Virus record (IMG/VR): IMGVR_UViG_2737471829_000004
Source of the DNA: a virus
Lineage: Duplodnaviria; Heunggongvirae; Uroviricota; Caudoviricetes
Reading direction: 5' to 3' (one strand)
DNA: 42,039 bases
The notes beneath the pieces are model-generated. The model saw only the letters and a program-made list of their open reading frames with translations, made no database searches and was not told the DNA's origin. The translations under genes and the position numbers were made by a program. Every line of letters begins with the position of its first letter. Within the stretch, counting starts at the first letter, position 1. Below are positions 1,263-40,850 of the stretch, one piece after another.

Positions 1263-1781
1263 TTATACGGCTTTTTTTACATCTTGTGGTTCTTGCGAAG
1301 GAGCTACAAGACCTTCCTGTTCATGAATACCATGCTCTGACAAAATCTCTTTGCGCTCTTCTGCTGGTAAAGTTTCTAGCATTTGGGCGAGTTGTATGCA
1401 CTCACGCGATACGCCGTGCAGAGATTGGATTTGAGTCTGATCAAAGATACTTGGCATTAGTGCACTAAGTCCACCTTTACTAAGTAGCTTTAATGCCCTC
1501 TGGATTTCCTCTGGTTCTAACTCTGCAACCAAAGCCATTAACACAGAAGCTAACTTATAAGCTGACTTATCGTTATCTAATAACTGCGCCCCTCCTAATT
1601 CTGCCTGAGTGGCATCAGGTAATGAGCTGATATGGTATTCATAAGCAACACCCTTTACTCCTTTGATCTGTCTCTTTTTCCATCCCTCATTAGTTGCTTT
1701 GCGGCTAATACTACTTGCTGAAGACGGAAGACCAGCAACCCCTTGTAGCTCTTTAGCTGAAAACCATTCTTGTGTCATCAC
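1263..1781 (-). CDS. c: Prophage repressor (c), D108-type
   Basis: 172-aa ORF divergently placed from ner-A-B. Its N-terminus ([36 protein letters not shown]) is paralogous to the transposase N-terminus, as in Mu-family repressors. Confidence 0.85.
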
Positions 1782-1969
1782 AAACCTCGCTTTAAATACA
1801 CGATGTATTCAAAGAAATGAAAAATATATTCACTTTAAAATCATCGAGATAGATGAATTTCAAACAAAACATTTGAATACACTATTGCATTGACAATGTA
1901 TTCACACTAGCATTACTGCATACCTTATCAGCTACCTTGCGGCGTAGCTGATGGCGTAGCTTGTGAGGA
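1782..1969. promoter_or_regulatory. Early operator/promoter region (divergent repressor and early promoters; transposition enhancer region)
   Basis: AT-rich intergenic region between divergent c and ner with repeated TGTATTCA / TGAATACA motifs and an inverted repeat cagctac..gtagctg. Confidence 0.6.
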
Positions 1970-1978
1970 TTGCATTTT

Positions 1979-2197
1979 ATGGCGATAAAGAAAAGTAAAT
2001 GTGAAGACAAAAGTAGATACGACATTGTTGCTGATCTGCGCAAAAGAGGAAAAAGCCTAGCAGCTCTTGGTCGTGAGAACGGTCTCTCTATCTCTACGGT
2101 AAAAAATGCCTTGGATAAACCTTACCCTCGGGGGGAAAGAATCATTGCCGATGCATTGGGAGTTGAGCCACGAGACATCTGGCCTTCGAGGTATTGA
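1979..2197 (+). CDS. ner: Ner-like DNA-binding early regulator
   Basis: 72 aa from the first ATG; C-terminal ...[18 protein letters not shown] matches the Ner/Nlp family signature. Position between c and A. Confidence 0.85.
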
Positions 2198-2199
2198 AA

Positions 2200-4200
2200 A
2201 TGCAACCACAATGTAATGATTGGTTTTCTGCAAAGAAATTAGAAGGGCTGATAGGTCTTCCAAAATCCTCTAGCGCGATCTCTCGTAAAGCAAGGTTAGA
2301 ACAGTGGGTGTTTCGACAGATACACGGGGTAAGAGGAGTAGCCTATGAGTTTCATATCTCATCTTTACCAAAGGAAACGCAAGCTGCGTTGTTGCTTAGA
2401 CAAGGAGAGATCGAAACAAGCCAGGGCCGTTTTGAAATCGCCCGCCCCACGCTGGAAGCCCATGATTATGATCGTGAGGCACTGTGGAGCAAATGGGATA
2501 ACGCCAGCGATTCCCAGCGCAGACTTGCTGAAAAATGGTTGCCTGCGGTTCAGGCCGCAGACGAAATGCTGAACCAGGGGATTTCAACAAAAACGGCTTT
2601 TGCGACCGTTGCAGGGCATTACCAGGTCAGCGCATCCACTTTGCGGGACAAGTATTACCAGGTACAGAAGTTTGCGAAGCCTGACTGGGCGGCTGCGCTT
2701 GTTGATGGACGTGGTGCATCCCGTCGCAACGTTCACAAAAGTGAATTTGACGAGGATGCCTGGCAGTTTCTGATTGCAGATTATCTGCGACCGGAAAAGC
2801 CCGCCTTCCGCAAATGTTATGAGCGTCTGGAACTGGCAGCCCGCGAGCATGGCTGGAGTATTCCCTCCCGTGCCACGGCCTTTCGCCGGATTCAGCAACT
2901 GGACGAGGCAATGGTTGTTGCCTGTCGTGAAGGTGAACATGCACTGATGCATCTGATACCGGCACAGCAGCGAACTGTGGAACACCTGGACGCCATGCAG
3001 TGGATCAACGGCGACGGTTATCTGCATAACGTCTTTGTACGCTGGTTTAACGGTGATGTGATCCGCCCGAAAACATGGTTCTGGCAGGATGTGAAAACCC
3101 GAAAAATTCTGGGCTGGCGCTGCGATGTGAGCGAGAACATTGATTCAATTCGCCTCTCGTTCATGGATGTTGTGACTCGCTACGGTATCCCGGAGGATTT
3201 TCACATCACCATTGATAACACCCGTGGTGCTGCGAATAAATGGCTGACGGGAGGCGCGCCCAATCGCTACCGCTTTAAGGTAAAAGAGGACGATCCAAAA
3301 GGACTGTTTTTACTGATGGGGGCGAAAATGCACTGGACAAGCGTTGTTGCCGGTAAAGGCTGGGGCCAGGCAAAACCTGTTGAACGTGCTTTCGGTGTTG
3401 GTGGGCTTGAGGAATACGTTGATAAGCATCCGGCACTGGCTGGCGCATATACGGGGCCTAATCCGCAGGCAAAACCTGATAACTATGGCGACCGCGCTGT
3501 TGATGCAGAGCTGTTTCTGAAAACCCTTGCCGAAGGTGTGGCGATGTTCAATGCCAGAACAGGCCGTGAAACAGAAATGTGCGGAGGCAAACTTTCGTTT
3601 GATGACGTTTTTGAGCGTGAATACGCCAGAACGATTGTGCGTAAGCCTACCGAAGAGCAAAAACGGATGCTGTTACTGCCTGCCGAGGCGGTGAACGTTT
3701 CACGTAAAGGCGAGTTCGCGCTTAAAGTTGGCGGCTCCCTTAAAGGTGTGAAAAACGTTTATTACAACATGGCGTTAATGAATGCCGGAGTGAAAAAAGT
3801 TGTGGTCAGATTTGATCCACAGCAGTTACACAGCACGGTTTATTGCTACACCCTGGACGGTCGGTTTATCTGTGAAGCGGAATGTCTGGCACCTGTTGCG
3901 TTTAATGATGCTGCGGCAGGCCGTGAATATCGCCGCCGCCAGAAACAACTGAAATCTGCGACGAAAGCAGCAATTAAGGCACAGAAACAAATGGATGCAC
4001 TGGAAGTGGCAGAGCTGCTGCCGCAGATAGCCGAACCTGAAGCACCAGAATCACGAATTGTCGGCATTTTCCGGCCTTCCGGTAATACGGAACGGGTGAA
4101 GAATCAGGAGCGTGATGATGAATACGAAACTGAGCGTGATGAATATCTGAATCATTCGCTGGATATTCTGGAACAGAACAGACGTAAAAAAGCCATTTAA
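2200..4200 (+). CDS. A: DDE transposase A (MuA family)
   Basis: 666 aa. From [12 protein letters not shown] onward it matches recalled MuA almost residue for residue; the N-terminal DNA-binding region differs from Mu. The track ORF begins 6 nt upstream at a TTG. Confidence 0.95.
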
Positions 4201-4238: not shown

Positions 4239-5177
4239 ATGAATATTTCCGATATTCGCGCAGGACTGCGCACGCTTGTAGAAAATGAAGAAACCACCTT
4301 TAAACAAATTGCTCTTGAGAGCGGACTTTCTACCGGAACTATCAGTAGTTTTATCAATGATAAGTACAACGGGGATAACGAGCGTGTTTCACAAATTCTG
4401 CAACGCTGGCTGGAAAAATATCATGCAGTTGCAGAACTACCTGAACCGCCCCGCTTTGTGGAAACGCAGACGGTAAAACAAATCTGGACAAGTATGCGTT
4501 TTGCCAGCCTGACTGAAAGTATTGCTGTTGTATGTGGCAATCCTGGTGTGGGCAAAACCGAAGCGGCCCGTGAATATCGCCGCACCAATAACAATGTCTG
4601 GATGATCACCATTACGCCATCCTGTGCCAGCGTTCTTGAATGTCTTACTGAACTGGCGTTTGAGCTGGGAATGAATGACGCACCACGCCGTAAAGGGCCG
4701 CTCTCCCGCGCCCTGCGACGTCGCCTTGAAGGTACACAGGGGCTGGTTATCATCGACGAAGCTGATCATCTTGGTGCCGAAGTTCTGGAAGAACTCCGCC
4801 TGTTACAGGAATCAACCCGTATTGGCCTTGTGCTGATGGGAAATCACCGGGTTTATTCAAATATGACGGGGGGTAACAGAACGGTTGAATTTGCCCGTCT
4901 GTTTTCCCGTATTGCAAAGCGCACTGCAATTAATAAAACCAAAAAAGCCGATGTAAAAGCTATTGCGGATGCCTGGCAGATTAACGGCGAAAAAGAACTG
5001 GAGTTATTACAGCAGATTGCGCAGAAACCAGGTGCGCTTCGCATTCTGAATCATTCACTTCGCCTTGCCGCCATGACGGCTCACGGTAAAGGTGAGCGTG
5101 TTAACGCAGATTATCTGCGTCAGGCTTTCCGTGAATTAGACCTGGACGTTGATATTTCAACGCTGCTGCGTAATTAA
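4239..5177 (+). CDS. B: Transposition ATPase / target DNA activator B (MuB family)
   Basis: 312 aa with Walker A GNPGVGKT and Walker B VIIDEADHL; immediately downstream of A. Confidence 0.95.
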   Translation: MNISDIRAGLRTLVENEETTFKQIALESGLSTGTISSFINDKYNGDNERVSQILQRWLEKYHAVAELPEPPRFVETQTVKQIWTSMRFASLTESIAVVCGNPGVGKTEAAREYRRTNNNVWMITITPSCASVLECLTELAFELGMNDAPRRKGPLSRALRRRLEGTQGLVIIDEADHLGAEVLEELRLLQESTRIGLVLMGNHRVYSNMTGGNRTVEFARLFSRIAKRTAINKTKKADVKAIADAWQINGEKELELLQQIAQKPGALRILNHSLRLAAMTAHGKGERVNADYLRQAFRELDLDVDISTLLRN

Positions 5178-5664: not shown

Positions 5665-5934
5665 ATGGCAAAGGTTATCTTTGAGTTTACATGGCTGGAA
5701 AGTAGTGACGGTTGCAATGGGCGCAGAGAAGTTCTGGATGCAAAAGCATGTCTTGCAGATATCTCGCCAACGGAAAATACCGGGCCTCATGATTTACTGG
5801 CAAATATCGTCCTGACTATGGCTCCTGAAATTATTAAAAAGGCCAAAGATGAGATGCTGACCACTATGAAGAAAGTGGGTATGGAGGCTGAATGTGATTT
5901 AGTACCACATCCGGTGAATGCGGTTAAACATTAA
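5665..5934 (+). CDS. Hypothetical early protein
   Basis: 89-aa ORF with strong RBS (aaggagaaacaaa ATG) in the co-directional early operon. Confidence 0.55.
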   Translation: MAKVIFEFTWLESSDGCNGRREVLDAKACLADISPTENTGPHDLLANIVLTMAPEIIKKAKDEMLTTMKKVGMEAECDLVPHPVNAVKH

Positions 5935-5954
5935 TTCGCAAAGGAGCGCTGACA

Positions 5955-7847: not shown

Positions 7848-8371
7848 TGTTTTTTAAAACGTCAAATCCCGCAGCACTGCTGGCGTGGGACCAGTTTATG
7901 GCGGACTGTCTGAAACTACGCGAAGAAGCCCGCCATCTTGATAAGGTTCTGGGTTGTGGTTGCCGGTCAGTATTCAGCACAGGTATTGGTGGGCGTTATT
8001 TTCATGGTGTGAACTTTCCGGGGAATGAGCGCCCTTTCTCGCGGGAGCTGTGGACCGTACAACGGCCCGCATCAGGTAACAGTTGCAGGCCTAGAACTTC
8101 GCGGATACCTGTTCATCTCAGGGAGCAGGCAAAAGAGCTGGCGAAAATATGGCAGGAGAATATTCCGGTCACTTATGCCCGCACAGATGCTCTTTTACCC
8201 GCACTGGGACTGGATTTCAGCGCAACAATATTCGGGCCGCTCCGGTGGTTCCGTGTTGGTGATGTGATTTACGTCATGACGGGGATGACACCCGCACAGG
8301 GCTGCATGACGGAAATCCTGTCCGATGAATTCATGAAGGCAAAGATTGCGTTAAAGGGGGCCGCTAAATGA
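7847..8371 (+). CDS. Hypothetical early protein
   Basis: ATG after aggagg; the track ORF starts at 7808 overlapping the previous gene. Confidence 0.45.
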   Translation: MFFKTSNPAALLAWDQFMADCLKLREEARHLDKVLGCGCRSVFSTGIGGRYFHGVNFPGNERPFSRELWTVQRPASGNSCRPRTSRIPVHLREQAKELAKIWQENIPVTYARTDALLPALGLDFSATIFGPLRWFRVGDVIYVMTGMTPAQGCMTEILSDEFMKAKIALKGAAK

Positions 8372-9036
8372 AAGAACGTGGCGTTGCTTTTAATGACGAT
8401 ATGGTCAGGGCAATTCTCGAAGGAAGAAAGACGCAAACACGCCGCCCGGTAAAAAATGTCGGACACGATAACTGTCTGGTTATCCATCGTAACGGTGTTT
8501 ATACCCACGTTATGGATGCACCTGAGCATGGTTTATGCCCGTTCGGTAACGTTGGTGATCGCATCTGGGTCCGTGAAGCGTGGGCAATATTAGGCAATGA
8601 GGATGGTTGCAGTGTGGACTGGAACGGCAACCTTTGTCATGGCGATGAGAAGAAGGCAGCAAGGATTTATCGGGCAAGTTGTGAACAAAAGCCTGGTGAT
8701 TACGGTCTGTGGTCAATACCTGATGATGCTGACTGGAAACCTCGCACTGTGAATGAAAAGTTTGATGGCAGGTGGTGCCCATCTATCCACATGCCGCGCT
8801 GGGCGTCGCGCATTCTGTTGGGAATAACCGACGTGCGTGTGGAACGGCTGCATGATATTAGCGAGGCAGATGCGAAAGCGGAAGGCGCATTTCCGGCGAC
8901 GTACAAAATTACGCCACCGGAAGCTGTTTATCGCGTTGGTTTTGGTGATATCTGGCGCGGTATTTATGGGCAAGATAACTGGCTGTCTAATCCGTGGGTA
9001 TGGGTAATTGAGTTTAAGCGTATTCAGGAAGCATAA
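8368..9036 (+). CDS. Hypothetical early protein, possible ASCH/PUA-like N-terminal motif
   Basis: 222-aa ORF; MVRAILEGRKTQTRR and GDRIWVREAW are reminiscent of ASCH-like domains. Recognition is tentative. Confidence 0.5.
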   Translation: MKERGVAFNDDMVRAILEGRKTQTRRPVKNVGHDNCLVIHRNGVYTHVMDAPEHGLCPFGNVGDRIWVREAWAILGNEDGCSVDWNGNLCHGDEKKAARIYRASCEQKPGDYGLWSIPDDADWKPRTVNEKFDGRWCPSIHMPRWASRILLGITDVRVERLHDISEADAKAEGAFPATYKITPPEAVYRVGFGDIWRGIYGQDNWLSNPWVWVIEFKRIQEA

Positions 9037-9038
9037 CT

Positions 9039-9380
9039 ATGAGCAAATCACTTAATGCACGTTGTATTCGCCGTTGGGAAGTCAGATTTAAGCCTGTTTG
9101 TGATTCAAAAGTTAGCCCTCACATGCGTAAAAGCTTTTTGCGTGGGGTGCGTGAATTAGGGCTTATTACGGCTGAAAACATGGTTGAAAGCATGGCTGAG
9201 AAAAACGCCAGGTTTGATTACGACGGCAAGGACACAGGCTGGTCACCGGAGTTTTCTAACTGGTATGCAACATGCCGAGAAAAGTATTGTAAAGAGGCCC
9301 GCGACTATCTGGATGAAGAAGTCACAAACGATGAGATCGATGAAGAAATCAGAACTGAGCTAGAGTATTGGAATGACTAA
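9039..9380 (+). CDS. Hypothetical early protein with acidic C-terminus
   Basis: 113-aa ORF, start coupled to the previous stop. Confidence 0.45.
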   Translation: MSKSLNARCIRRWEVRFKPVCDSKVSPHMRKSFLRGVRELGLITAENMVESMAEKNARFDYDGKDTGWSPEFSNWYATCREKYCKEARDYLDEEVTNDEIDEEIRTELEYWND

Positions 9381-9447
9381 TCTGGCCGATATGACCGGAA
9401 AGTGTTTCAGCGATACAAGCGGTGTGGTAGCACCGCTTTTTAAAGGT

Positions 9448-32306: not shown

Positions 32307-33661
32307 TGTTTTATATTGATAACGACAGCGGCGTAACCGTCATGCCGCCCGTATCCGCCCAGCGTAGTGCTATCGTTCGCTGGTTTTCAGAAGGTGACGG
32401 GAATAATGTTATCACATGGCCCGGCATGGACTGGTTTAATATTGTTCAGGCGGAGTTATTAAACACGCTGGAAGAAGCTGGTATTCAACCGGATAAAACA
32501 AAATTAAACCAGCTTGCACTGTCCATTAAAGCCATTATGAGCAATAACGCGCTGCTGATAAAAAATAACCTCAGCGAAATTAAAACTGCCGGGGCATCAG
32601 CACAGCGTACAGCACGTGAAAATCTGGATATCTATGATGCCAGCCTGAACAAAAAAGGACTCGTTCAGCTAACCAGTGCCACTGACAGCCCCAGTGAAAC
32701 GCTGGCAGCCACCGCAAAAGCGGTGAAAATTGCGATGGATAATGCCAATGCCCGTCTGGCAAAAGACCGGAACGGAGCAGATATTCCCAATAAGCCGCTG
32801 TTTATCCAAAACCTCGGTTTACAGGAAACGGTAAACAAGGCTGGTAACGCTGTTCAGCGTTCTGGCGATACAATGACCGGAAAACTGAATCTACCACAGA
32901 CATCTGCATTCGGCGTTAATACCGATAATGCACTGGGTGGTAATTCCATTACTCTCGGAGATAACGACACCGGTATTAAACAGGGCGGCGATGGTGTCCT
33001 TTTATTCTATTTAAATGGACAACTGATATTTGGGCTTCAACCCACATCCGCTGATTTTTATAAGCGAGTTGCCTACATTCATCAGGGAGTAGCTCCAGAT
33101 GGGAGTGGCGCATTTGCAGACCAGTTAAATAATGCCACCGCGCCTTTTGTTCAGACGCAGTTTGCCTGGAATCCCACTCCTGGCGGTCATTACGTACCGA
33201 TAGCTAAGGGCTTGTCCATTCGCAATGGACAGGGGTATCCAGGTGCGGTCAGCTTTGGTTATTTACTAACTGAACAAATGGGATTTCCCATACCATGCAT
33301 TCATATGCGTGGAGATTACGGAGCTGATGCTTTGTGGCAGTTTAACCCGAACGATAAATCTTTTATTTCACCGGGTGCTCTTGTTGCGGGTGGCATCCGT
33401 TATAACACCGATGGAAATATATTTGGCGGGTGTTGGGGTTCAAATTTAGCTGATTATCTCAATAGCACATATGTAAGAGACATTCGACTTGGTAGCGCAG
33501 AATCAATATCAGCATGGCGAGGCCCTGGTTACTGGGATACTTCTGGATATGTTCTGACCGCAGCCGGAAACAGCAACACCGATGAATTTATTGATACATT
33601 AACCAGAAGGCCTATTCAGAAGTTGATTGGTGGGACATATTATAACGTTGTGAGTATTTGA
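32306..33661 (+). CDS. S: Tail fibre protein S (constant part fused to the variable part in the current G orientation)
   Basis: 451 aa; the reading frame runs through the left gix site at about codon 165; the variable part shares motifs with S' (NALGG.SI.LGDNDTG.KQ.GDG). Confidence 0.85.
32801..32826. repeat. gix recombination site (left), inside S
   Basis: ttatccaaaacctcggtttacaggaa; its inverted partner at about 35635-35660 is identical in 25 of 26 positions. Confidence 0.85.
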
Positions 33662-33662
33662 C

Positions 33663-34190
33663 ATGATGCATTTAAAAAACATTAAAGCAGGGAACCCAAA
33701 AACACCTGAACAATACCAGTTAACCAAAAAAGCTGGAGTGGTCTGGCTTTATACTGAAGATGGTAAAAACTGGTACGAAGAACAAAAAAACTTTCAACCA
33801 GATACTATAAAAATTGCATACGATAAAAATAATGTGATTGTTACCGTAAGCAAAGATGTTTCAACGATTAACCCGGAAGGTTTAAGTGTTGTTGAAGTAT
33901 CCGATATTACGGCAAATCGTCGCGCAGACAATAACGGAAACTGGATGTTTCTGGATGGTAAAGTAGTAAAGCGGGAATATACAAAACAGGAGCTGCAACA
34001 GCAGGCAGAGTTACAAAAATCCGCTTTGCTTTCCGAAGCGGAGTCTGTGATTCAACCGCTGGAACGTGCTGTCAGGCTGAATATGGCAACTAATGAGGAA
34101 CGCGCACGACTGGAGTCATGGGAACGCTACAGTGTTCTGGTCAGCCGTGTGGATACGGCAAATCCTGAATGGCCACAAAAGCCTGAATAA
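33663..34190 (+). CDS. U: Tail fibre assembly protein U
   Basis: 175 aa beginning [23 protein letters not shown], paralogous to U' on the opposite strand. Confidence 0.85.
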
Positions 34191-34218
34191 AAATTAAGGC
34201 CCGATAGCGGGCCTTGTC

Positions 34219-34752
34219 TCATTCTGGTTGTTCCGGGAATGTTACAGGAAGAACAGAGGTATCTGTGGCATCAACCTGCTGCATGTATAACATCCAGTTA
34301 ATGAGTCTTTGCCTGTCTGAATCGCTGATAATTCCCAGCGCAAGCTGTGTTTGCCAGCACTGCGTTTCCTCTCTGGCCTGTCGCAGCAAAATCTGTTTCT
34401 GAATTTCAGCCAGTTGACGTAGTTCTTCATCAGTCCGGGGGCGTTTCATGACCTTGCCATCCTGAAACACCCAGTCACCGAGAATATCGGCCCGGCGATT
34501 CGCTGTCGTGTCGGGTAATTCGACAACGCTCATTCCTTCCGGGTTAATAGACGACACATCTTTTTCAATATAGCGAATGATACCTCTGTCATCGTAAGCG
34601 ATTTTTAGTGTGTCTGCCTGAAAGGCTTTTTGTGCCTCATACCAGTTCTGACCATCTTCAGCGTAAAGCCAGATAACACCATGTCTCTTTGTTAACTCAT
34701 ACTGTTCCAGTGTTTTAGCATTACCCGCTTTTATGTTCTTTAAGTGCATCAT
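34219..34752 (-). CDS. U': Alternative tail fibre assembly protein U'
   Basis: 177 aa beginning [25 protein letters not shown], paralog of U in inverted orientation. Confidence 0.85.
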   Translation of the reverse strand: MMHLKNIKAGNAKTLEQYELTKRHGVIWLYAEDGQNWYEAQKAFQADTLKIAYDDRGIIRYIEKDVSSINPEGMSVVELPDTTANRRADILGDWVFQDGKVMKRPRTDEELRQLAEIQKQILLRQAREETQCWQTQLALGIISDSDRQRLINWMLYMQQVDATDTSVLPVTFPEQPE

Positions 34753-34753
34753 A

Positions 34754-35634
34754 TTAAACGCTCGCTACATTATACCAGGTGCCATTTATATACTTTTGAA
34801 CGGGTCTGTAATAAACGCCCGCTATATTATCGGCAGAGTTGGACCCTGTATCCTGAACATTAATACCAGACAATACATGACCTGACGGGCACTTGAAATT
34901 CCATGTTTGCCAGTTGTTCACACCATGATATTGCTGTGAACCAAGACGAACATCTTTTACGTATCGGGAATCAAAGTTACTCCAGTTACTTGGTTGTATG
35001 TGACCGTTTACAGCAAATATCACCGAATTATCTGTATTTCGCTGACTATAGAAATGCCAGCCTGAATCATCACCAAGCTCTGCAACAGTTGGTCTTGATG
35101 AAGTGCCCCATAAATTAAAACCTACGTTTTTCGTGGAGTTGTTGGAGCTGGATAGCGTGAATTTTTTACCATCCCCGGCCTGAACGTTTTTAAAAGCAAT
35201 AGCAACTCCATTCTGAAAGCGGAATACTCGCTGACTATTAGCGTAAACATCCAGAATACCGTCTCCATTCTGTTTAAATCCGGTATCATTATCACCAAGA
35301 ACAATAGAGCTACCACCTAACGCATTCGTCGTACCAACTCCAAGGCTGCCATTAATGACGGCATTAACAAGAATATTTAGTGCATCCCATTTCAGCGTCA
35401 TCAGGTCTTTTGTTGTGGTGCTTTGTTTGCTTCTCCATTTGAAATATTCATTGCCGTTGTCGCCTGTTTCAAACCACATGTATGAATCAGTGTCACCATC
35501 GGCATCATTTTTAAATCCAATCTTCGCCCAGTCAGTATTTCGAATCCAGGCAAGGATTGAGTCATTTTCAAAAGTAAGCCCACCGGACAAAGTATCGCCA
35601 TTTTTTTGCACGGCATTACCAGCCCTGTTTACCG
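34754..35634 (-). CDS. S': Alternative tail fibre variable part S' (no independent start; expressed only after G inversion)
   Basis: Open frame from the right gix site to 34754; upstream sequence ..[20 protein letters not shown].. parallels the S junction ..[20 protein letters not shown]... Confidence 0.8.
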
Positions 35635-36580: not shown

Positions 36581-37247
36581 GTATGAAGGCCAGATTGTTG
36601 GCTATGGTTCAAAGGAGCTGCGCGTTGAAACCATATCCTGCTGGCTGGCCCGCACAATTATTCAGACAAAGCACTATTCCCGCCGTTTTGTGAATAACTC
36701 TTACCTCCACCTGGGAGTGTTCAGCGGACGCGATCTGGTTGGCGTTCTCCAGTGGGGATATGCCCTTAACCCCAACTCAGGTCGTCGTGTCGTGCTTGAA
36801 ACGGATAACCGGGGCTATATGGAGTTGAATCGCATGTGGCTACACGACGACATGCCCCGCAACTCTGAATCACGGGCCATCAGCTACGCGCTGAAAGTTA
36901 TCAGATTACTGTATCCGTCAGTGGAGTGGGTTCAGTCCTTTGCTGACGAACGCTGCGGACGCGCAGGCGTTGTGTATCAGGCGTCGAATTTTGATTTTAT
37001 TGGCAGCCATGAAAGCACGTTCTACGAGCTGGATGGTGAGTGGTATCACGAGATAACGATGAACGCAATTAAGCGCGGTGGACAACGAGGCGTGTATTTA
37101 CGGGCTAATAAAGAGCGTGCCGTGGTGCACAAATTTAATCAGTATCGCTACATCAGGTTCCTGAACAAGCGAGCAAGGAAGCGACTAAATACTAATCTAT
37201 TCAGGATCCAACCATATCCAAAATCAACTCTGACTAGTATCAAATAA
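36501..37247 (+). CDS. mom: Mom, DNA adenine modification enzyme (anti-restriction)
   Basis: Sequence from [33 protein letters not shown] onward recognised as Mu Mom; last gene before the right end. The true start codon is uncertain. Confidence 0.85.
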
Positions 37248-37306
37248 CTTATTTATTCCTGCTGAAAAGCAGCTCCTCATGGCATAAAATTGTTCACGTG
37301 AGTTTA

Positions 37307-37344
37307 AAATGACCAAATGGCAGTACAGTATTTGGTCATTTTAT
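37307..37344 (+). terminator. Hairpin downstream of mom
   Basis: 12-bp inverted repeat aaaatgaccaaa...tttggtcatttt with a large loop, followed by T residues. Confidence 0.45.
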
Positions 37345-37376
37345 GGGGTGAATTTTAAAGTCAAAACGATGGTAAG

Positions 37377-37718
37377 GTGCATATGAAAAAAATACTCATA
37401 GCAGTACTACTTTGCTTTGGTGTTCTTTCTGCTAATCAGGCAATAGCGGCTGTTACCTTAAGCGGTAAGTATCCTGCATGCATATCTGCTAATGAATTCG
37501 AGCGATTAAGCTCAATTTTGCAACACGAAGATCAAGAGGCGTTTGAAGAGATCTTTAAGACATCATGCTTTATGCCTAAAAAGGGGGTTAAAGTTGATAA
37601 AGTTGTTTCTATGGGGTGGACCAGTGGAGTTGCGCATGTCAAAGTTTATGTAAAAGGCAATCTTTACGATCTTTGGACTAACACCGAAAATCTTCAGTCC
37701 GAGAAGGCTGGTAAATAA
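37377..37718 (+). CDS. Small secreted protein of unknown function (cargo/moron candidate)
   Basis: 113 aa; signal peptide MKKILIAVLLCFGVLSANQAIA-AV; RBS aaggtg 5 nt upstream; locally AT-rich; lies inside the prophage between mom and attR. Confidence 0.5.
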   Translation: MHMKKILIAVLLCFGVLSANQAIAAVTLSGKYPACISANEFERLSSILQHEDQEAFEEIFKTSCFMPKKGVKVDKVVSMGWTSGVAHVKVYVKGNLYDLWTNTENLQSEKAGK

Positions 37719-37899
37719 CGCTGTAATCAACGTGTAATCACATCTCCTACCAGCTATCGCCTGATAAAGTTAGGTGATAGCTATTTCAATACTCTCTAGT
37801 TTCACTGAAAGCACGAAACTTAATACCTCCATTCCAGATTGCTTAATAATCGAGCATTTTTATCTTGAATGTTTTTGCGCGCTTTATCAGCCATACCCT

Positions 37900-38020
37900 A
37901 AGTGATCCCCATGTAATGAATAAAAAGCAGTAATTAATACTGCTGTTTCATTTGAAGCGCGAAAGCTAAAGTTTTCGCATTTATCGTGAAACGCTTTCGC
38001 GTTTTTCGTGCGCCGCTTCA
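37900..38020. promoter_or_regulatory. attR region with transposase-binding end sites (R1-R3-like)
   Basis: tgaagcgcgaaagctaaag, cgtgaaacgctttcgcg and the terminal ..tttttcgtgcgccgcttca match the recalled Mu right end. Confidence 0.7.
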
Positions 38021-38025
38021 CATGC
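38021..38025. repeat. Target-site duplication, right copy (CATGC)
   Basis: Identical to 919-923. Confidence 0.8.
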
Positions 38026-40850
38026 TCTTCCGTCACCCGGCCGCAGTTATCCAGAACATAAAGATATGATTCACCCTGCGGGTTAATGACTTCTGTCAGT
38101 TGCAGCGTGTCTTTATCGTAGCGGTACTGCCAGCGGTGGCCTTCACCGTCCGTTCGCGCCACCGGCAAATCGAACGGGCCGTACTCCATTGTCCAGACAA
38201 CACCATTGCCGTCCGTGTACGCCAGCAGGTTGCCGTGGCGGTCATAGCGAAATCCTTCCGCGCCGGTTCCAGCACGTTCAATGCCGCTCAGTTTATGGTG
38301 CTGCTGCCACTGTAACCGCACTGACTGACCGCCGGGGCCGCGCATCTTCACCGGCAGGTCGTGACCGCTGTATTCGGTGTGGTGTTCACGGCCCATCACG
38401 TCGGTGAGTGTTTCCGGCCGGTTGTGGTGGTCGTACTCTATGCCCAGACGCCGTTCATCCTGGCGGAATATTCCCGACAACAGCCCCTGAGCGGTGTACG
38501 CCAGCCGGGTCTCTTCGCCCTGTGGCGACACCAGGCTTACCGGCAGGCCGCGTTCATCGCACAGCTGTGTCCACGTCTGCCCGGCAGGGTCGGTGATGTT
38601 GCTGAACAGGCCGTGCTCATCATAGCGGTACAACCACTCCGCGCCGTCTGCCGCCGTGTAACGGCTTAACTGACCGTGTGCGGCGTTGTATTCAAACTTC
38701 TCCACCCGCCCGGCAGGGGAGTGGCGGGCCAGCAGGTGATGGAATTCATCCCATTCATACGTGGTGGTGCTGCCGTCCGGCGCTTCTTCCCGCAGAATAT
38801 TGCCGTCAGGATCATAGTAATAACGGTGAATGCCCTTGCCGTCCGTCACGGTGGTGCAGCCGTCACCATAGTCCAGCGTGGCGTTGTAATAGCCCTCCGC
38901 CCCGGTGACATTCACGCACCGGCCCTGTGCATCGTAGGTGAAACGGCTCCACGTCTGGTCGTTATCGGACCAGCGGATGATCCGGTCCGCAGCGTCGTAC
39001 TCATAAAACAGGTGGTAGTCCAGCCGCGCATCCGCTTCTGTCAGCCGCCCCCGCGCATCCTGTTCGTAGGTCGCCAGCGTCTGTATGCCGTTATCCGTGC
39101 GGTGAATGGCTTTCAGGTAGCCGCTGGCATGGTACGTCAGTTTAAGCCGGATCCCGTCGGTGTGACTGACACCCGTGATCCGGTACTGGCTGTCGCGCTC
39201 AAACGTGATGCGGTTGCTGGCGGTGTCACTCATCCCGCCCAGCATATACATCCGGTCACCGGGGCTGTGTGCCAGGCGGTCATCGCTGGTATCGTCAGTC
39301 ACCGGGTGGCGCAGACGCATTCCCGGAAAGGCGTCATAAAAGAAGCGGCTGCTCAGGGCATCACGGTCGAACAGCTCCAGGTAATCATCACGGCGGCGCA
39401 GGATGTACTGGGCGTGATACGGGTTAACCGCCGTATCACTTTCACCGTCGAAGGCGAAGTTCAGCGTGGCTCCCAGGCTGATGATATCCACCCGGTTTCC
39501 CTGTTCACGCACCCAGGCGTATTCGCTCCAGGAGTCGCTCCAGCCCACGCCGGTCAGGCCATGCAGCGGCAGTACAGAACTGTGGAAACGGGTGAAGGAG
39601 AGGGGGAGTGTCTGGCCCAGGGTGAAGTCGGTACGTTCGTCGCAGTACGCGCCGGTTACCGGATCGACAGGATCTGTTACCCATCTGATGACTTTATTGG
39701 CAATACTTTTTAACGACTTACCTGTTTTCCCCAGCAACGCGCCGAGCTTTGCCCCCAGCAGCTTCCCGCTTTTCCCCAGCAGGTTCCCCAGTTTGCCGAG
39801 TCTCGCCAGATTCTTCAGTTTTCCCAGCAGTCCCGCTGGCGGCAGAAGATAGCTGGCTATCGTTATTCCCCCCAGGATCATTCTCTGCCACGGCGGGAAC
39901 TCCGGCTGGATATCCAGATAGGTCACCTGCTCACCGCTAATAAAGACGTCCGGCGAACCTCCCACGATTGCTGCGCTGCACTCCAGTTTGTCGCCCTGGC
40001 GTGCGGCAGGCTGATTGTTGATAAAGACGTTGCTGCTGCCCTGGGCTATCCTCGGTGGTTTGTTCTCCTTGTCGCAGAGCGCCGTGTCCTCACCGGCTTC
40101 CGGGAAATCCACATCTTTTTTGATTTCGCCACGCCCGCCCACCATGGTGGCAAACTCCATTAATACCGGACCGGCGGGAAACAGAAGCGATGCGCCGGCG
40201 CTGACGCGATCCATAAAACCGGCATTGCTGTCCGTCAGGGTGATAACAGCGTTCCCCCAGGCCTTCGCCAGTGGTACTGCTTTTTCCGCTGCCGATTCAA
40301 GCAGGTCAGTGGCAATATCACCCCATGAGGGTTCCCCCTGTGGGACTTCAGGTATTGCTCCAGGTGGGGGAGGAGGGGGAAGGGTGACGGCGGCCCTGGC
40401 AGCGGGCTTTCCGTTAATTTTTACGTTTTCAGAACCGGTATTGATGGCGCCGTCCGTGTCACAAAAACTGTTTATCCATGACTCAAGCTGGTTCTGTTTC
40501 TCCTCCACATAATCACTCGCCTTATAGCTGGCATACATCAGCGCAGGCACCAGAACCAGCGCATAAGGGCCGGTGGCACAGGCGGCCATAATCAGGCAAC
40601 CTTCTGCGATGGTCACTATCGCCCCCAGCACGGCCCCTGCCAGCGCCCCCAAAAAACTCTTGTGCTGAATTTCATCGCCCAGCCTGGCGGCGGGGGGGCC
40701 AGACTTTTTTGATGCCAGCATCTGTGCAATGGCTTTGTCGTTGGCTGCCCGTTTCATCTGGCTGGCGACCATCGCCTGCTGTGACAGCATTCGCATTGCC
40801 AGCGTACCGCCTGCGGTCGCTCCCTGTGGCCCGCCTGGTCCTTCACTCAT
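38021..40850 (-). CDS. prePAAR-TM-PAAR-Rhs T6SS effector, 5' portion (943 codons), interrupted by the prophage
   Basis: N-terminal AARLGDEIQH (prePAAR motif AARxxDxxxH), hydrophobic helices (FLGALAGAVLGAIVTIAEGCLIMAACATGPYALVLVPALMY), PAAR-like motifs (VKINGKPAARAAV, VFINNQPAARQGD) and many YD repeats. The track ORF continues to 37887 by reading about 44 codons into the Mu right end. Confidence 0.8.

Follow-up and report, generated by a model that had tools for sequence, protein, structure and literature searches.

In textbooks, the immunity of transposable coliphages is described with two types, those of Mu and of D108. The window, which is the whole stretch of 42,039 nucleotides analysed here, contains a Mu-like prophage, and the question was to which type of immunity its early control region belongs. 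The first-pass annotation had described a D108-like repressor, ner and transposase N-terminus on a Mu-like backbone, and had expected heteroimmunity to Mu. The analysis leads to a different assignment: with a probability of roughly 70%, positions 1383-2390 represent a third allelic immunity and early-control cassette of the Mu family, shared with Escherichia phage PhiR68_1, which is located on a Mu/D108-like genome and has a specificity of its own.

The prophage and its left end

The host was identified as E. coli 2014C-3075, and the window is identical to positions 763388-805426 of NZ_CP027447.1. The prophage is inserted into an RHS-repeat gene, with the two copies of a 5-bp target duplication, CATGC, at its borders (919-923 and 38021-38025). 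The following features define the element and its left end:

924-38020, plus strand: complete Mu-like prophage of 37,097 bp, with Mu left-end sequence from 924 and the Mu right end ...CGCCGCTTCA to 38020
924-1262, no strand: left end (attL) with A-binding sites, from a 50-bp identity profile and a megablast match to Mu 1-458

The proposal of a Mu-like backbone was borne out, with 89% of the prophage aligning to Mu at about 97% identity; to D108, it aligns equally well. For attL, the 50-bp identity profile gave 98-100% identity to Mu versus 62-90% to D108. The left end of D108 itself diverges from about position 50 on, whereas attL of the prophage is Mu-like instead. All open reading frames are intact, with ribosome-binding sites and a Mu-like gene spacing.

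Extent and gene layout of the cassette

In Mu (AF083977), the immunity region consists of c, the O1-O3 operators with the enhancer, ner and the I-alpha domain of MuA. The prophage has both the logic of this module and the domain families in common with Mu. With D108 (GQ357916), it shares the arrangement of c, operators and ner, followed by A with the shared N-terminal domain; the D108 immunity region was reportedly described by Mizuuchi, Weisberg and Mizuuchi in 1986 (NAR 14:3813, as cited in PMC3820752). In the prophage, c is divergent from the ner-A-B operon, with the control region between them, and the module is located near the left end with attL at 924. The following elements were identified:

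1263-1778, minus strand: c, repressor of 171 amino acids (PF02316; PDB 1TNS and 1G4D; PHROG 7148, transcriptional repressor)
1263-1382, minus strand: 3' part of c with its final ~40 codons, still recognizable as Mu DNA (84-88% identity)
1383-2390, no strand: type-specific immunity cassette of about 1 kb, delimited by blastn, identity profile and junction alignments
1779-1978, no strand: divergent control region with putative operators and transposition enhancer, from pairwise alignment
1979-2197, plus strand: ner, 72 amino acids (Pfam HTH_35, PF13693, E=2e-25; PHROG 769)
2200-4200, plus strand: transposase A, 666 amino acids (PF02316, PF09039, PF02914 and PF09299; PDB 1TNS)
2200-2385, plus strand: type-specific I-alpha domain of A, residues 1-62, delimited by its divergence from MuA and predicted to bind the enhancer
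4239-5177, plus strand: B, the next gene in the ner-A-B operon

In addition to the N-terminal two-thirds of c and the control region, the cassette includes ner and the initial ~63 codons of A. By blastn, no match to Mu was obtained from about 1383 to 2361. A sensitive blastn search gave no match of D108 to 1263-2400, although D108 was present in the phage collection searched, and in the comparison of the prophage with D108 a blastn match was absent over 924-2399. The flanks of the cassette are 98-100% identical in the 50-bp identity profile, and the left recombination junction was placed at about 1382. Each of the elements named in the first-pass annotation was found at its position, and the two peptides quoted there are exact substrings of the translations.

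The repressor, the transposase N-terminus and Ner

A Mu-type winged-helix DNA-binding domain was defined by Pfam PF02316 and the structures 1G4D/1QPM. The N-terminus of c matches PF02316 with E=4.9e-23 and 82 bits (cut-off 23.3), and it matches both 1G4D, the DNA-binding domain of the Mu repressor (E=1.1e-6), and 1TNS, the I-alpha domain of MuA (E=6.7e-7). Residues ~4-60 of c form this winged-helix domain; an alternative GTG start is present at 1781. For the N-terminus of A, matches to PF02316 (E=3e-44), to 1TNS (E=4e-15) and also to 1G4D were obtained. The predicted fold of both domains is settled by their sequence matches to 1TNS and 1G4D. A search of NCBIfam returned a model neither for c nor for A; Ner remained below the cut-off of the SfsB model.

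The known sharing of a DNA-binding domain by repressor and transposase, as named in the first-pass annotation, is present here, with both proteins belonging to PF02316 and matching the same two structures. The ~70% identity that had been given for the two N-termini agrees with the value of 39/57 (68%) for the cores, compared to 54% in D108 and 43% in Mu; in the stretches quoted earlier, 17 of 24 and 11 of 12 positions match when counted from the translations. Because both domains match PF02316, this likeness is not due to chance. While 68% of the residues are identical, only 30% of the third codon positions are, no identical run exceeds 8 nt, and the same codon is used for 14 of the 39 identical residues. 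These values rule out a recent gene conversion as the origin of the similarity. The divergence of third codon positions together with the likeness of the proteins shows that the similarity of c and A is old and has been kept by selection.

The near-exact match of the transposase to MuA after a divergent start was also confirmed: the first 62 residues differ, and from residue 63 on 599 of 604 residues are identical to MuA and 598 of 604 to A of D108. For c, the identity is 96% to the repressor of PhiR68_1, 48% to that of Mu, 40% to that of D108 and 40.5% to that of SfMu. These values are distributed unevenly over the protein. In the DNA-binding core, the identity was 33% to the Mu protein and 56% to that of D108; the C-terminal half is 59% identical to Mu and 34% to D108, and is in this respect Mu-like. 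Mu c has 196 amino acids with an N-terminal extension, while c of the prophage has 171 amino acids and lacks the extension. For Ner, the identity amounts to 64% with the D108 protein, 46% with that of Mu and 99% with that of PhiR68_1.

In D108 and the prophage alike, the wing is one residue shorter than in Mu and the recognition segment contains the motif I-[ST]-RKA. The recognition segments of D108 are KLATNITRKA in c and KQATNITRKA in A, and those of Mu are GSVAGVHYRA in c and KTSAGVIYVA in A. The residues directly before I-[ST]-RKA differ consistently from those of D108 in both c and A of the prophage. The predicted specificity elements, which are the recognition segments of c and A, co-vary within each phage.

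That the region is of the Mu type or the D108 type in the literal sense is next to impossible. Mu-like sequence is present in the left end and in the final ~40 codons of c, and A beyond its N-terminal part has 99% identity to Mu as well as to D108. Within 1383-2361, there is no nucleotide match, the proteins are only 40-64% identical, and the operator-like words differ as well. Literal identity of the cassette to that of D108 or Mu is excluded by the blastn results and by these protein identities.

The control region

The control region comprises 200 bp and is collinear with that of D108, with 122 identical positions over 185 of the 200 bp (66%). For Mu, the alignment to 1779-1978 was gapped and uninformative. 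A repeat search revealed the following motifs:

1793-1811, no strand: inverted pair of an operator-like word, TAAATACA (1793-1800; TGTATTTA on the minus strand) and TGTATTCA (1804-1811)
1825-1832, plus strand: operator-like word TATATTCA
1874-1904, no strand: the word once more as an inverted pair, TGAATACA (1874-1881) with TGTATTCA (1897-1904)
1927-1952, no strand: perfect 9-bp inverted repeat ATCAGCTAC-N8-GTAGCTGAT, the putative Ner operator, unique in the window with 0.04 expected by chance

With at most one mismatch, TGTATTCA is present in 5 copies within 112 bp, whereas the expectation for an interval of this size is about 0.14. Exact copies number 4 in the 42 kb, three of them inside the 112-bp interval. 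The control regions of Mu and D108 contain no copy of the word. D108 contains five words similar to TGATTTCA at positions collinear with the five TGTATTCA words of the prophage. The two words differ at 2 of 8 positions by a central swap of TA and AT, and TA in place of AT is present in all five copies. In 1779-1978, no exact copy of the D108 word was identified, and one match with 1 mismatch was found.

The repeat of the Ner type in D108, CCGTGAGCTAC-N8-GTAGCTCACGG, has the same N8 geometry as that of the prophage but different outer bases; the inner bases AGCTAC-N8-GTAGCT are identical in both. In Mu, the repeat at the Ner site has a spacer of 6 bp, compared to 8 bp in the prophage.

A scan of 1200-2300 with the sigma-70 consensus did not find a promoter. 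A putative early promoter was assigned with the -35 hexamer TTGCAT at 1885-1890, a spacer of 17 nt and the -10 hexamer TAGCAT at 1908-1913, and the second pair of words brackets this -35 hexamer. The position is a tentative one, since the consensus scan was empty and the placement rests on collinearity with D108. Between the two clusters of words, no convincing match to an IHF site was seen by eye. Among four alleles, the columns of the words and the Ner repeat are variable in 4 of 58 cases versus 24 of 142 for the other columns, which is a trend only (Fisher p=0.07).

It was considered whether the region might be a diverged cassette of the D108 type that still shares D108 immunity, so that repressors and operators cross-react and only two functional groups exist. 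This we consider unlikely. The collinear control regions, the difference of the operator words at just two positions, the shorter wing with I-[ST]-RKA, the 56% identity of the c core and the Ner inverted repeat with its identical core are in its favor. Against these stand the TA-for-AT exchange in every one of the five words, the absence of the D108-type word except for the single imperfect match, and the residues ahead of I-[ST]-RKA, which differ in the same way in c and in A. The distribution of the types among other phages and strains, as described below, also argues against shared immunity.

Relation to PhiR68_1, D108 and SfMu

The same cassette was identified in Escherichia phage PhiR68_1 (PV340575.1, 2025), the DNA of which is 97.6% identical over 924-2450. 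The region is matched at 97.3-97.6% over 100% of the query, with 96-100% in the identity profile of the cassette, and A of PhiR68_1 is 99% identical to A of the prophage. The PhiR68_1 control region has all five words in intact form despite 13 differences elsewhere, and the Ner inverted repeat is conserved as well. The two phages differ in the tail-fibre region of the G segment and in the DNA past mom. The PhiR68_1 record gives E. coli C as the host and labels the genes just 'repressor', 'Ner' and 'DNA transposition protein' without naming an immunity type. In a literature search, the sole paper naming the PhiR68 series was found to treat PhiR68.2 and not PhiR68_1, and no paper was found on the cassette or on a third immunity type of Mu.

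For the Shigella phage SfMu (KP010268; PMC4406740), an exchange of the immunity region on a conserved Mu-family backbone has likewise been described. SfMu is of the D108 type, with 89% identity to D108 for c and 98% for Ner, and these values were used as the benchmark for this immunity type (PMC4406740). At the level of type, the region in the window is unlike both Mu and D108. Of the assignment in the first-pass annotation, the part that the region is not of the Mu type stands, based on the 33% identity of the c core and the missing blastn match from about 1383 to 2361. Immunity of the D108 type did not hold, with 40% identity for c, 64% for Ner, no blastn match, and different operator words and a different Ner repeat. 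Judged by the collinear control region with 66% identity, the short wing and the I-[ST]-RKA segment, the cassette is still distantly related to that of D108.

Distribution in E. coli

For the proposed PhiR68_1 type, at least 95% identity in one contiguous block was required from c through the control region and ner to the 5' part of A, and the prophage has all of these in that form. Among 5426 complete E. coli genomes, 15 contain the cassette in full length (95-100% identity, at least 94% coverage). A Mu-like A gene is present at 93 places in complete E. coli genomes, and the immunity regions were 32 of the Mu type, 45 of the D108 type and 17 of the PhiR68_1 type. Roughly, the 93 places are covered by these three types, with the PhiR68_1 type making up about one sixth of the Mu-family prophages in complete genomes. 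In addition, a type with an HTH_3 repressor was noticed.

Strain cS51a contains two copies of the cassette at different loci with identical c, Ner, A and B proteins, which points to a recent transposition. Along with the presence in PhiR68_1 and in the 15 genomes, this speaks for a cassette that is functional and passed on as a unit. Strain 22KM0354 contains a full-length prophage of the PhiR68_1 type, a prophage of the Mu type and an immunity region of the D108 type along with a third A gene; one prophage of this strain has an internal stop in gene N. Strain MIN10 contains the PhiR68_1 type and the Mu type. Co-residence of types was seen in these two strains only, and is indirect support for a separate superinfection-immunity specificity.

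The presence of both types in 22KM0354 argues against a cassette sharing D108 immunity. In addition, the genuine D108-type phages are tightly clustered, as seen from the c protein of SfMu and from the E. coli copies, of which 40 of 45 have at least 95% identity, and no intermediates toward the PhiR68_1 type were found.

It is very improbable that the region is the decayed control region of a defective prophage and that the differences arose by drift. Nothing specific speaks for decay beyond the general point that many prophages are defective. The intact reading frames with their ribosome-binding sites and Mu-like spacing, the conservation of the cassette at 95-100% in the 15 genomes and in the deposited phage PhiR68_1, the two identical copies at separate loci in cS51a and the intact 5-bp target duplication at the prophage flanks all argue against it. 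So does the divergence of third codon positions combined with conservation of the protein, which indicates purifying selection.

A model for regulation and immunity

For the third cassette, a scheme along the lines of Mu and D108 can be proposed. The winged-helix domain of c would bind to sites of the form RTGTATTCA(A/C)A in two groups, 1793-1832 and 1874-1904, between c and ner, and binding would shut off the early promoter of ner-A-B. The I-alpha domain of A may read the same sites as a transposition enhancer, so that the repressor, as we propose, would also compete directly with the transposase. Ner is predicted to act on ATCAGCTAC-N8-GTAGCTGAT, located just 3' of the early promoter, and would tune both early and repressor transcription. 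In this scheme, the sites actually bound, the position of the promoter, the function as enhancer and the heteroimmunity are those that we infer from the DNA. Observed directly were the genes and their domains, the sequence relationships, the layout of the repeats, the distribution in E. coli and the co-residence of types.

Because the recognition segments, the operator word, and Ner with its site differ as a linked set, an immunity specificity of its own would be expected for the cassette. A region that is not of the Mu type, combined with the known layout of a domain shared by repressor and transposase, makes heteroimmunity to Mu very likely, as the first-pass annotation had expected. Heteroimmunity to D108 is probable; since the words differ only by the central TA/AT swap and the I-[ST]-RKA segment is shared, a partial cross-recognition with D108 is possible. 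We lean towards the view that the cassette represents a third orthogonal specificity for recognition by the repressor and by the transposase at its enhancer, heteroimmune to both Mu and D108, and that the repressor is a natural chimera. In this chimera, a D108-related DNA-binding domain would be joined to a Mu-related C-terminal regulatory domain.

Implications for the Mu family

Repressor, operator/enhancer, Ner and the N-terminus of the transposase form a linked set, of which the window provides a third allele. Since temperate phages are expected to have mosaic immunity cassettes, the gain is an incremental one; the known mechanism is unchanged by a third type. If the specificity is a separate one, it would explain why two or three near-identical Mu-like prophages are present in one strain. 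It would also provide a third natural data point for the way in which the Mu winged-helix domain reads DNA, and a further orthogonal pair of repressor and enhancer for genetic tools based on Mu. Together with Mu and D108, the PhiR68_1 type would then make up a natural set of three, with joint variation of the recognition helix, the wing and the operator word, and this set may be used to derive a recognition code for this winged-helix family and to construct mutually orthogonal tools for Mu transposition and repression.

The prophage and its ends

The window is identical (100%) to positions 763388-805426 of the E. coli 2014C-3075 chromosome (NZ_CP027447.1) and contains a complete Mu-family prophage at 924-38020, with both Mu ends and a target duplication. 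The canonical left end of Mu, TGTATTGATTCACTTGAAGTACG, begins at 924, and the right end, ...TTTTTCGTGCGCCGCTTCA, finishes at 38020. The 5-bp sequence CATGC at 919-923 and again at 38021-38025 abuts both prophage ends and is the target duplication expected for a simple Mu insertion. Since 89% of the prophage was aligned at about 97% identity, to Mu and to D108 alike, the first-pass annotation rightly described a Mu-like backbone, though one equally close to Mu and D108.

The prophage is inserted into a gene for an RHS-repeat protein, the flanks of which lie at 1-923 and 38021-38319. In the left flank, a frame open on the minus strand encodes four RHS repeats (Pfam PF05593, E=9e-29). In RefSeq, both flank fragments are named 'ABC transporter substrate-binding protein' pseudogenes, which appears to be a misannotation.

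Genes and boundaries of the immunity cassette

Genes of the immunity region
1263-1778, minus strand: c, repressor, 171 aa
between 1778 and 1979: c-ner intergenic region, 200 bp
1979-2197: ner
2200-4200: A, transposase, starting inside the interval 1263-2400 originally assigned to the region

The peptides quoted in the first-pass annotation match the translations exactly. As had been noticed there, A is almost identical to MuA from residue 63 to the end (599/604; 598/604 for D108 A), with the first 62 residues divergent, and the N-terminal cores of c and A resemble each other (39 of 57 residues, or 68%, compared to the approximately 70% estimated). Both N-termini belong to PF02316, the Mu DNA-binding domain family, and match the solved domains 1TNS (MuA I-alpha) and 1G4D (Mu repressor).

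Sharp cassette boundaries emerged when identity to Mu, D108 and PhiR68_1 was profiled at 50-bp resolution and the junctions were aligned.

DNA identity along the left part of the prophage
924-1264: Mu 96-100%; D108 62-98% only
1265-1364 (last ~40 codons of c): Mu 84-88%
~1383 to ~2390: practically no relationship to Mu, a weak one to D108
2442 onward: ~100% identical to both Mu and D108

Protein identity to Mu and D108
c, whole: Mu 48%; D108 40%
c, DNA-binding core: Mu 33%; D108 56%
c, C-terminal half: Mu 59%; D108 34%
Ner: Mu 46%; D108 64%

The unrelated DNA and the low identities of the c core and Ner agree with the earlier statement that the region is not of the Mu type. Its assignment to the D108 type was not upheld: by megablast or sensitive blastn, D108 gave no match to 1263-2400, though it was present in the phage collection searched. 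For comparison, SfMu, which is regarded as D108-like, has a c protein 89% and a Ner protein 98% identical to those of D108 (PMC4406740). With SfMu as the yardstick, the c and Ner identities show that the cassette is neither Mu-type nor D108-type. What survives of the proposed relation is a distant kinship: the DNA-binding domains, Ner and the control region are remote relatives of those of D108, and they are combined with a repressor C-terminal domain related to that of Mu and with a left end of the Mu type. In the phage collection, PhiR68_1 (PV340575.1) is the only record with the same cassette (DNA 97.6%, c 96%, Ner 99% and A 99% identical).

The control region

In the c-ner interval, an 8-bp word, TGTATTCA, or a variant with one mismatch is present in five copies within 112 bp, at 1793 (-), 1804 (+), 1825 (+), 1874 (-) and 1897 (+), forming two inverted pairs and one single copy. 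The control region holds 3/4 of the exact copies in the 42-kb window, and with its flanks the word reads roughly RTGTATTCA(A/C)A. With one mismatch allowed, it is absent from the Mu and D108 control regions. The D108 control region is collinear in the alignment (122 identical positions), and five TGATTTCA-like words lie at the equivalent sites in it, so that each copy distinguishes the two types by an exchange of TA and AT at its centre.

Downstream of the words, a perfect inverted repeat, ATCAGCTAC-N8-GTAGCTGAT, was identified at 1927-1952; it occurs once in the window, where chance alone would give 0.04 occurrences. At the aligned position D108 has CCGTGAGCTAC-N8-GTAGCTCACGG, reportedly the D108 Ner operator in the work of Tolias and DuBow. 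The equivalent repeat of Mu differs in sequence and has a spacer of 6 bp. Within 1944-1961 (GTAGCTGATGGCGTAGCT), a third GTAGCT half-site, 12 bp past the right arm of the Ner-type repeat and with no D108 counterpart, could be an extra Ner contact or due to chance.

By alignment to D108, a putative early promoter (-35 TTGCAT at 1885-1890, 17-nt spacer, -10 TAGCAT at 1908-1913) is located between the second pair of words. We can only infer this placement, because a consensus promoter scan found no site at the control region.

Co-variation of the repressor and transposase with their presumed sites

The presumed recognition helix and the segment preceding it are nearly the same in c and A within a phage and differ between the window type, D108 and Mu. 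In D108 the segment reads KLATNITRKA in c and KQATNITRKA in A; in Mu, GSVAGVHYRA and KTSAGVIYVA. The wing is one residue shorter in both D108 and the window type than in Mu. The c/A core identity is the highest of the three in the window (68%), compared to 54% in D108 and 43% in Mu. Recent gene conversion was ruled out as its source: the coding segments share just 30% of third codon positions and no identical run longer than 8 nt, which shows the resemblance to be old and kept by selection on the protein. Such a pattern is expected if repressor and transposase have to recognise common DNA sites.

We infer the mechanism from the Mu and D108 paradigm, which goes back to Harshey et al. 1985 and Mizuuchi et al. 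1986, both cited through the reference list of PMC3820752, and otherwise to Mizuuchi and Mizuuchi 1989 and Leung et al. 1989. The repressor would bind the word clusters, blocking the early promoter and occluding the enhancer; upon induction, the I-alpha domain of A would take the same clusters as the transposition enhancer; Ner on the inverted repeat would modulate early and repressor transcription. The overlap of operator and enhancer ('O/E') is drawn in PMC3820752.

The strongest alternative is a remaining cross-reaction between the cassette and D108, giving cross-immunity. Only two positions separate the operator words from those of D108, and I-[ST]-RKA within the recognition segment is common to both types; however, all five words carry the systematic change, and both c and A have changed consistently from D108. 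We consider cross-immunity unlikely. A third specificity in the full sense is given a probability of about 0.7, and heteroimmunity to Mu alone is held with high confidence.

Distribution in E. coli

Among 5426 complete E. coli genomes, the conserved part of A was found in 83 (93 places), the Mu-type immunity region in 27 (32 places), the D108-type in 45 (45 places) and the window type in 16 (17 places); taken together, the three types come close to the total for A. All these counts are approximate, because some matches are partial or derive from laboratory constructs. The cassette is present in 15 of the 16 window-type records and complete in 14; in strain N61 it is broken off inside A, and in the one remaining record, N1286, the match is confined to the Mu-like 3' end of c. 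The whole block from c to the 5' part of A is covered in nearly all matches, which argues for inheritance as a unit, without recombinants between c and the A N-terminus. The repressor cluster comprises 109 member sequences on 844 contigs, Salmonella among them.

Strain 22KM0354 (NZ_CP151071.1; loci L005 and L015, search match H156) contains a full-length window-type prophage, a Mu-type prophage and a D108-type immunity region, with three A genes. Co-residence with a D108-type region further speaks against cross-immunity with D108 and for a separate specificity. MIN10 combines the window and Mu types. 22KM0354 is a dog bloodstream isolate, and gene N of its Mu-type copy has an internal stop.

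In cS51a (NZ_CM176585.1), window-type prophages are present at 206509 and 3277549 (L006, L007), the insertion sites being a bcs glycosyltransferase gene and torS. The c, Ner, A and B proteins of the two copies are identical (same WP accessions), which at different loci indicates that the prophage has recently transposed within this strain and therefore that its A/enhancer pair works. A decayed region was ruled out by intact genes, conservation, the occurrence of the cassette in a deposited phage genome and this duplicated active copy.

Other mosaic patches and a fourth arrangement

A fourth Mu-family immunity arrangement was observed in E. coli at L014:2613-5609 and at loci L012 and L013. Its repressor, P0016 (202 aa, 342 member sequences), has a Cro/C1-type HTH_3 N-terminus instead of the Mu winged helix and a Mu-c-like C-terminal tail, of which the final 19 residues are identical to those of the window c. 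The gene adjoins a divergent ner and an A gene with the N-terminus MLTHWVTAQECVGMSCFPKHEV..., yet another I-alpha variant; past about codon 50, this A shares 91-92% identity with Mu. The arrangement departs from the shared-domain rule, its repressor and transposase DNA-binding domains being non-homologous.

Between mom and the right end, about 660 bp (37223-37886) are absent from Mu, D108 and PhiR68_1. An ORF at 37383-37718 codes for a protein of 111 aa whose N-terminus resembles a signal peptide (MKKILIAVLLCFGVLSANQAIA) and which has no match in Pfam, PHROG or NCBIfam. D108 and PhiR68_1 have a different 'D108-specific protein' at this position, and the interval is a variable cargo slot. At 8335-9412, two early-region ORFs (8368-9036 and 9039-9380) replace Mu genes 13-15; they are also present in PhiR68_1, have no Mu or D108 match and belong to PHROGs 874 and 6675, function-unassigned families. 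The gene-7 position (5685-5939, ORF 5665-5934) is another small mosaic patch of the early region, unlike Mu and matching D108 and PhiR68_1. In the invertible G segment (32881-35347), the variable parts (tail-fibre C-termini and assembly proteins) are unlike those of Mu, D108 and PhiR68_1, which suggests a different host range from these phages. The annotation gives an incomplete S' fragment, which is expected in the inverted G orientation.

Implications for Mu-family immunity

The cassette sequence is already contained in GenBank and RefSeq, in PhiR68_1 and in generic 'DNA-binding protein' entries; a literature search found no paper recognising it as a distinct Mu immunity type. For the Mu specialist the finding is useful rather than surprising: the kind of module is well understood and the mechanism is unchanged by the cassette, which should define its own immunity, because its proteins and sites differ as a set from those of Mu and D108.
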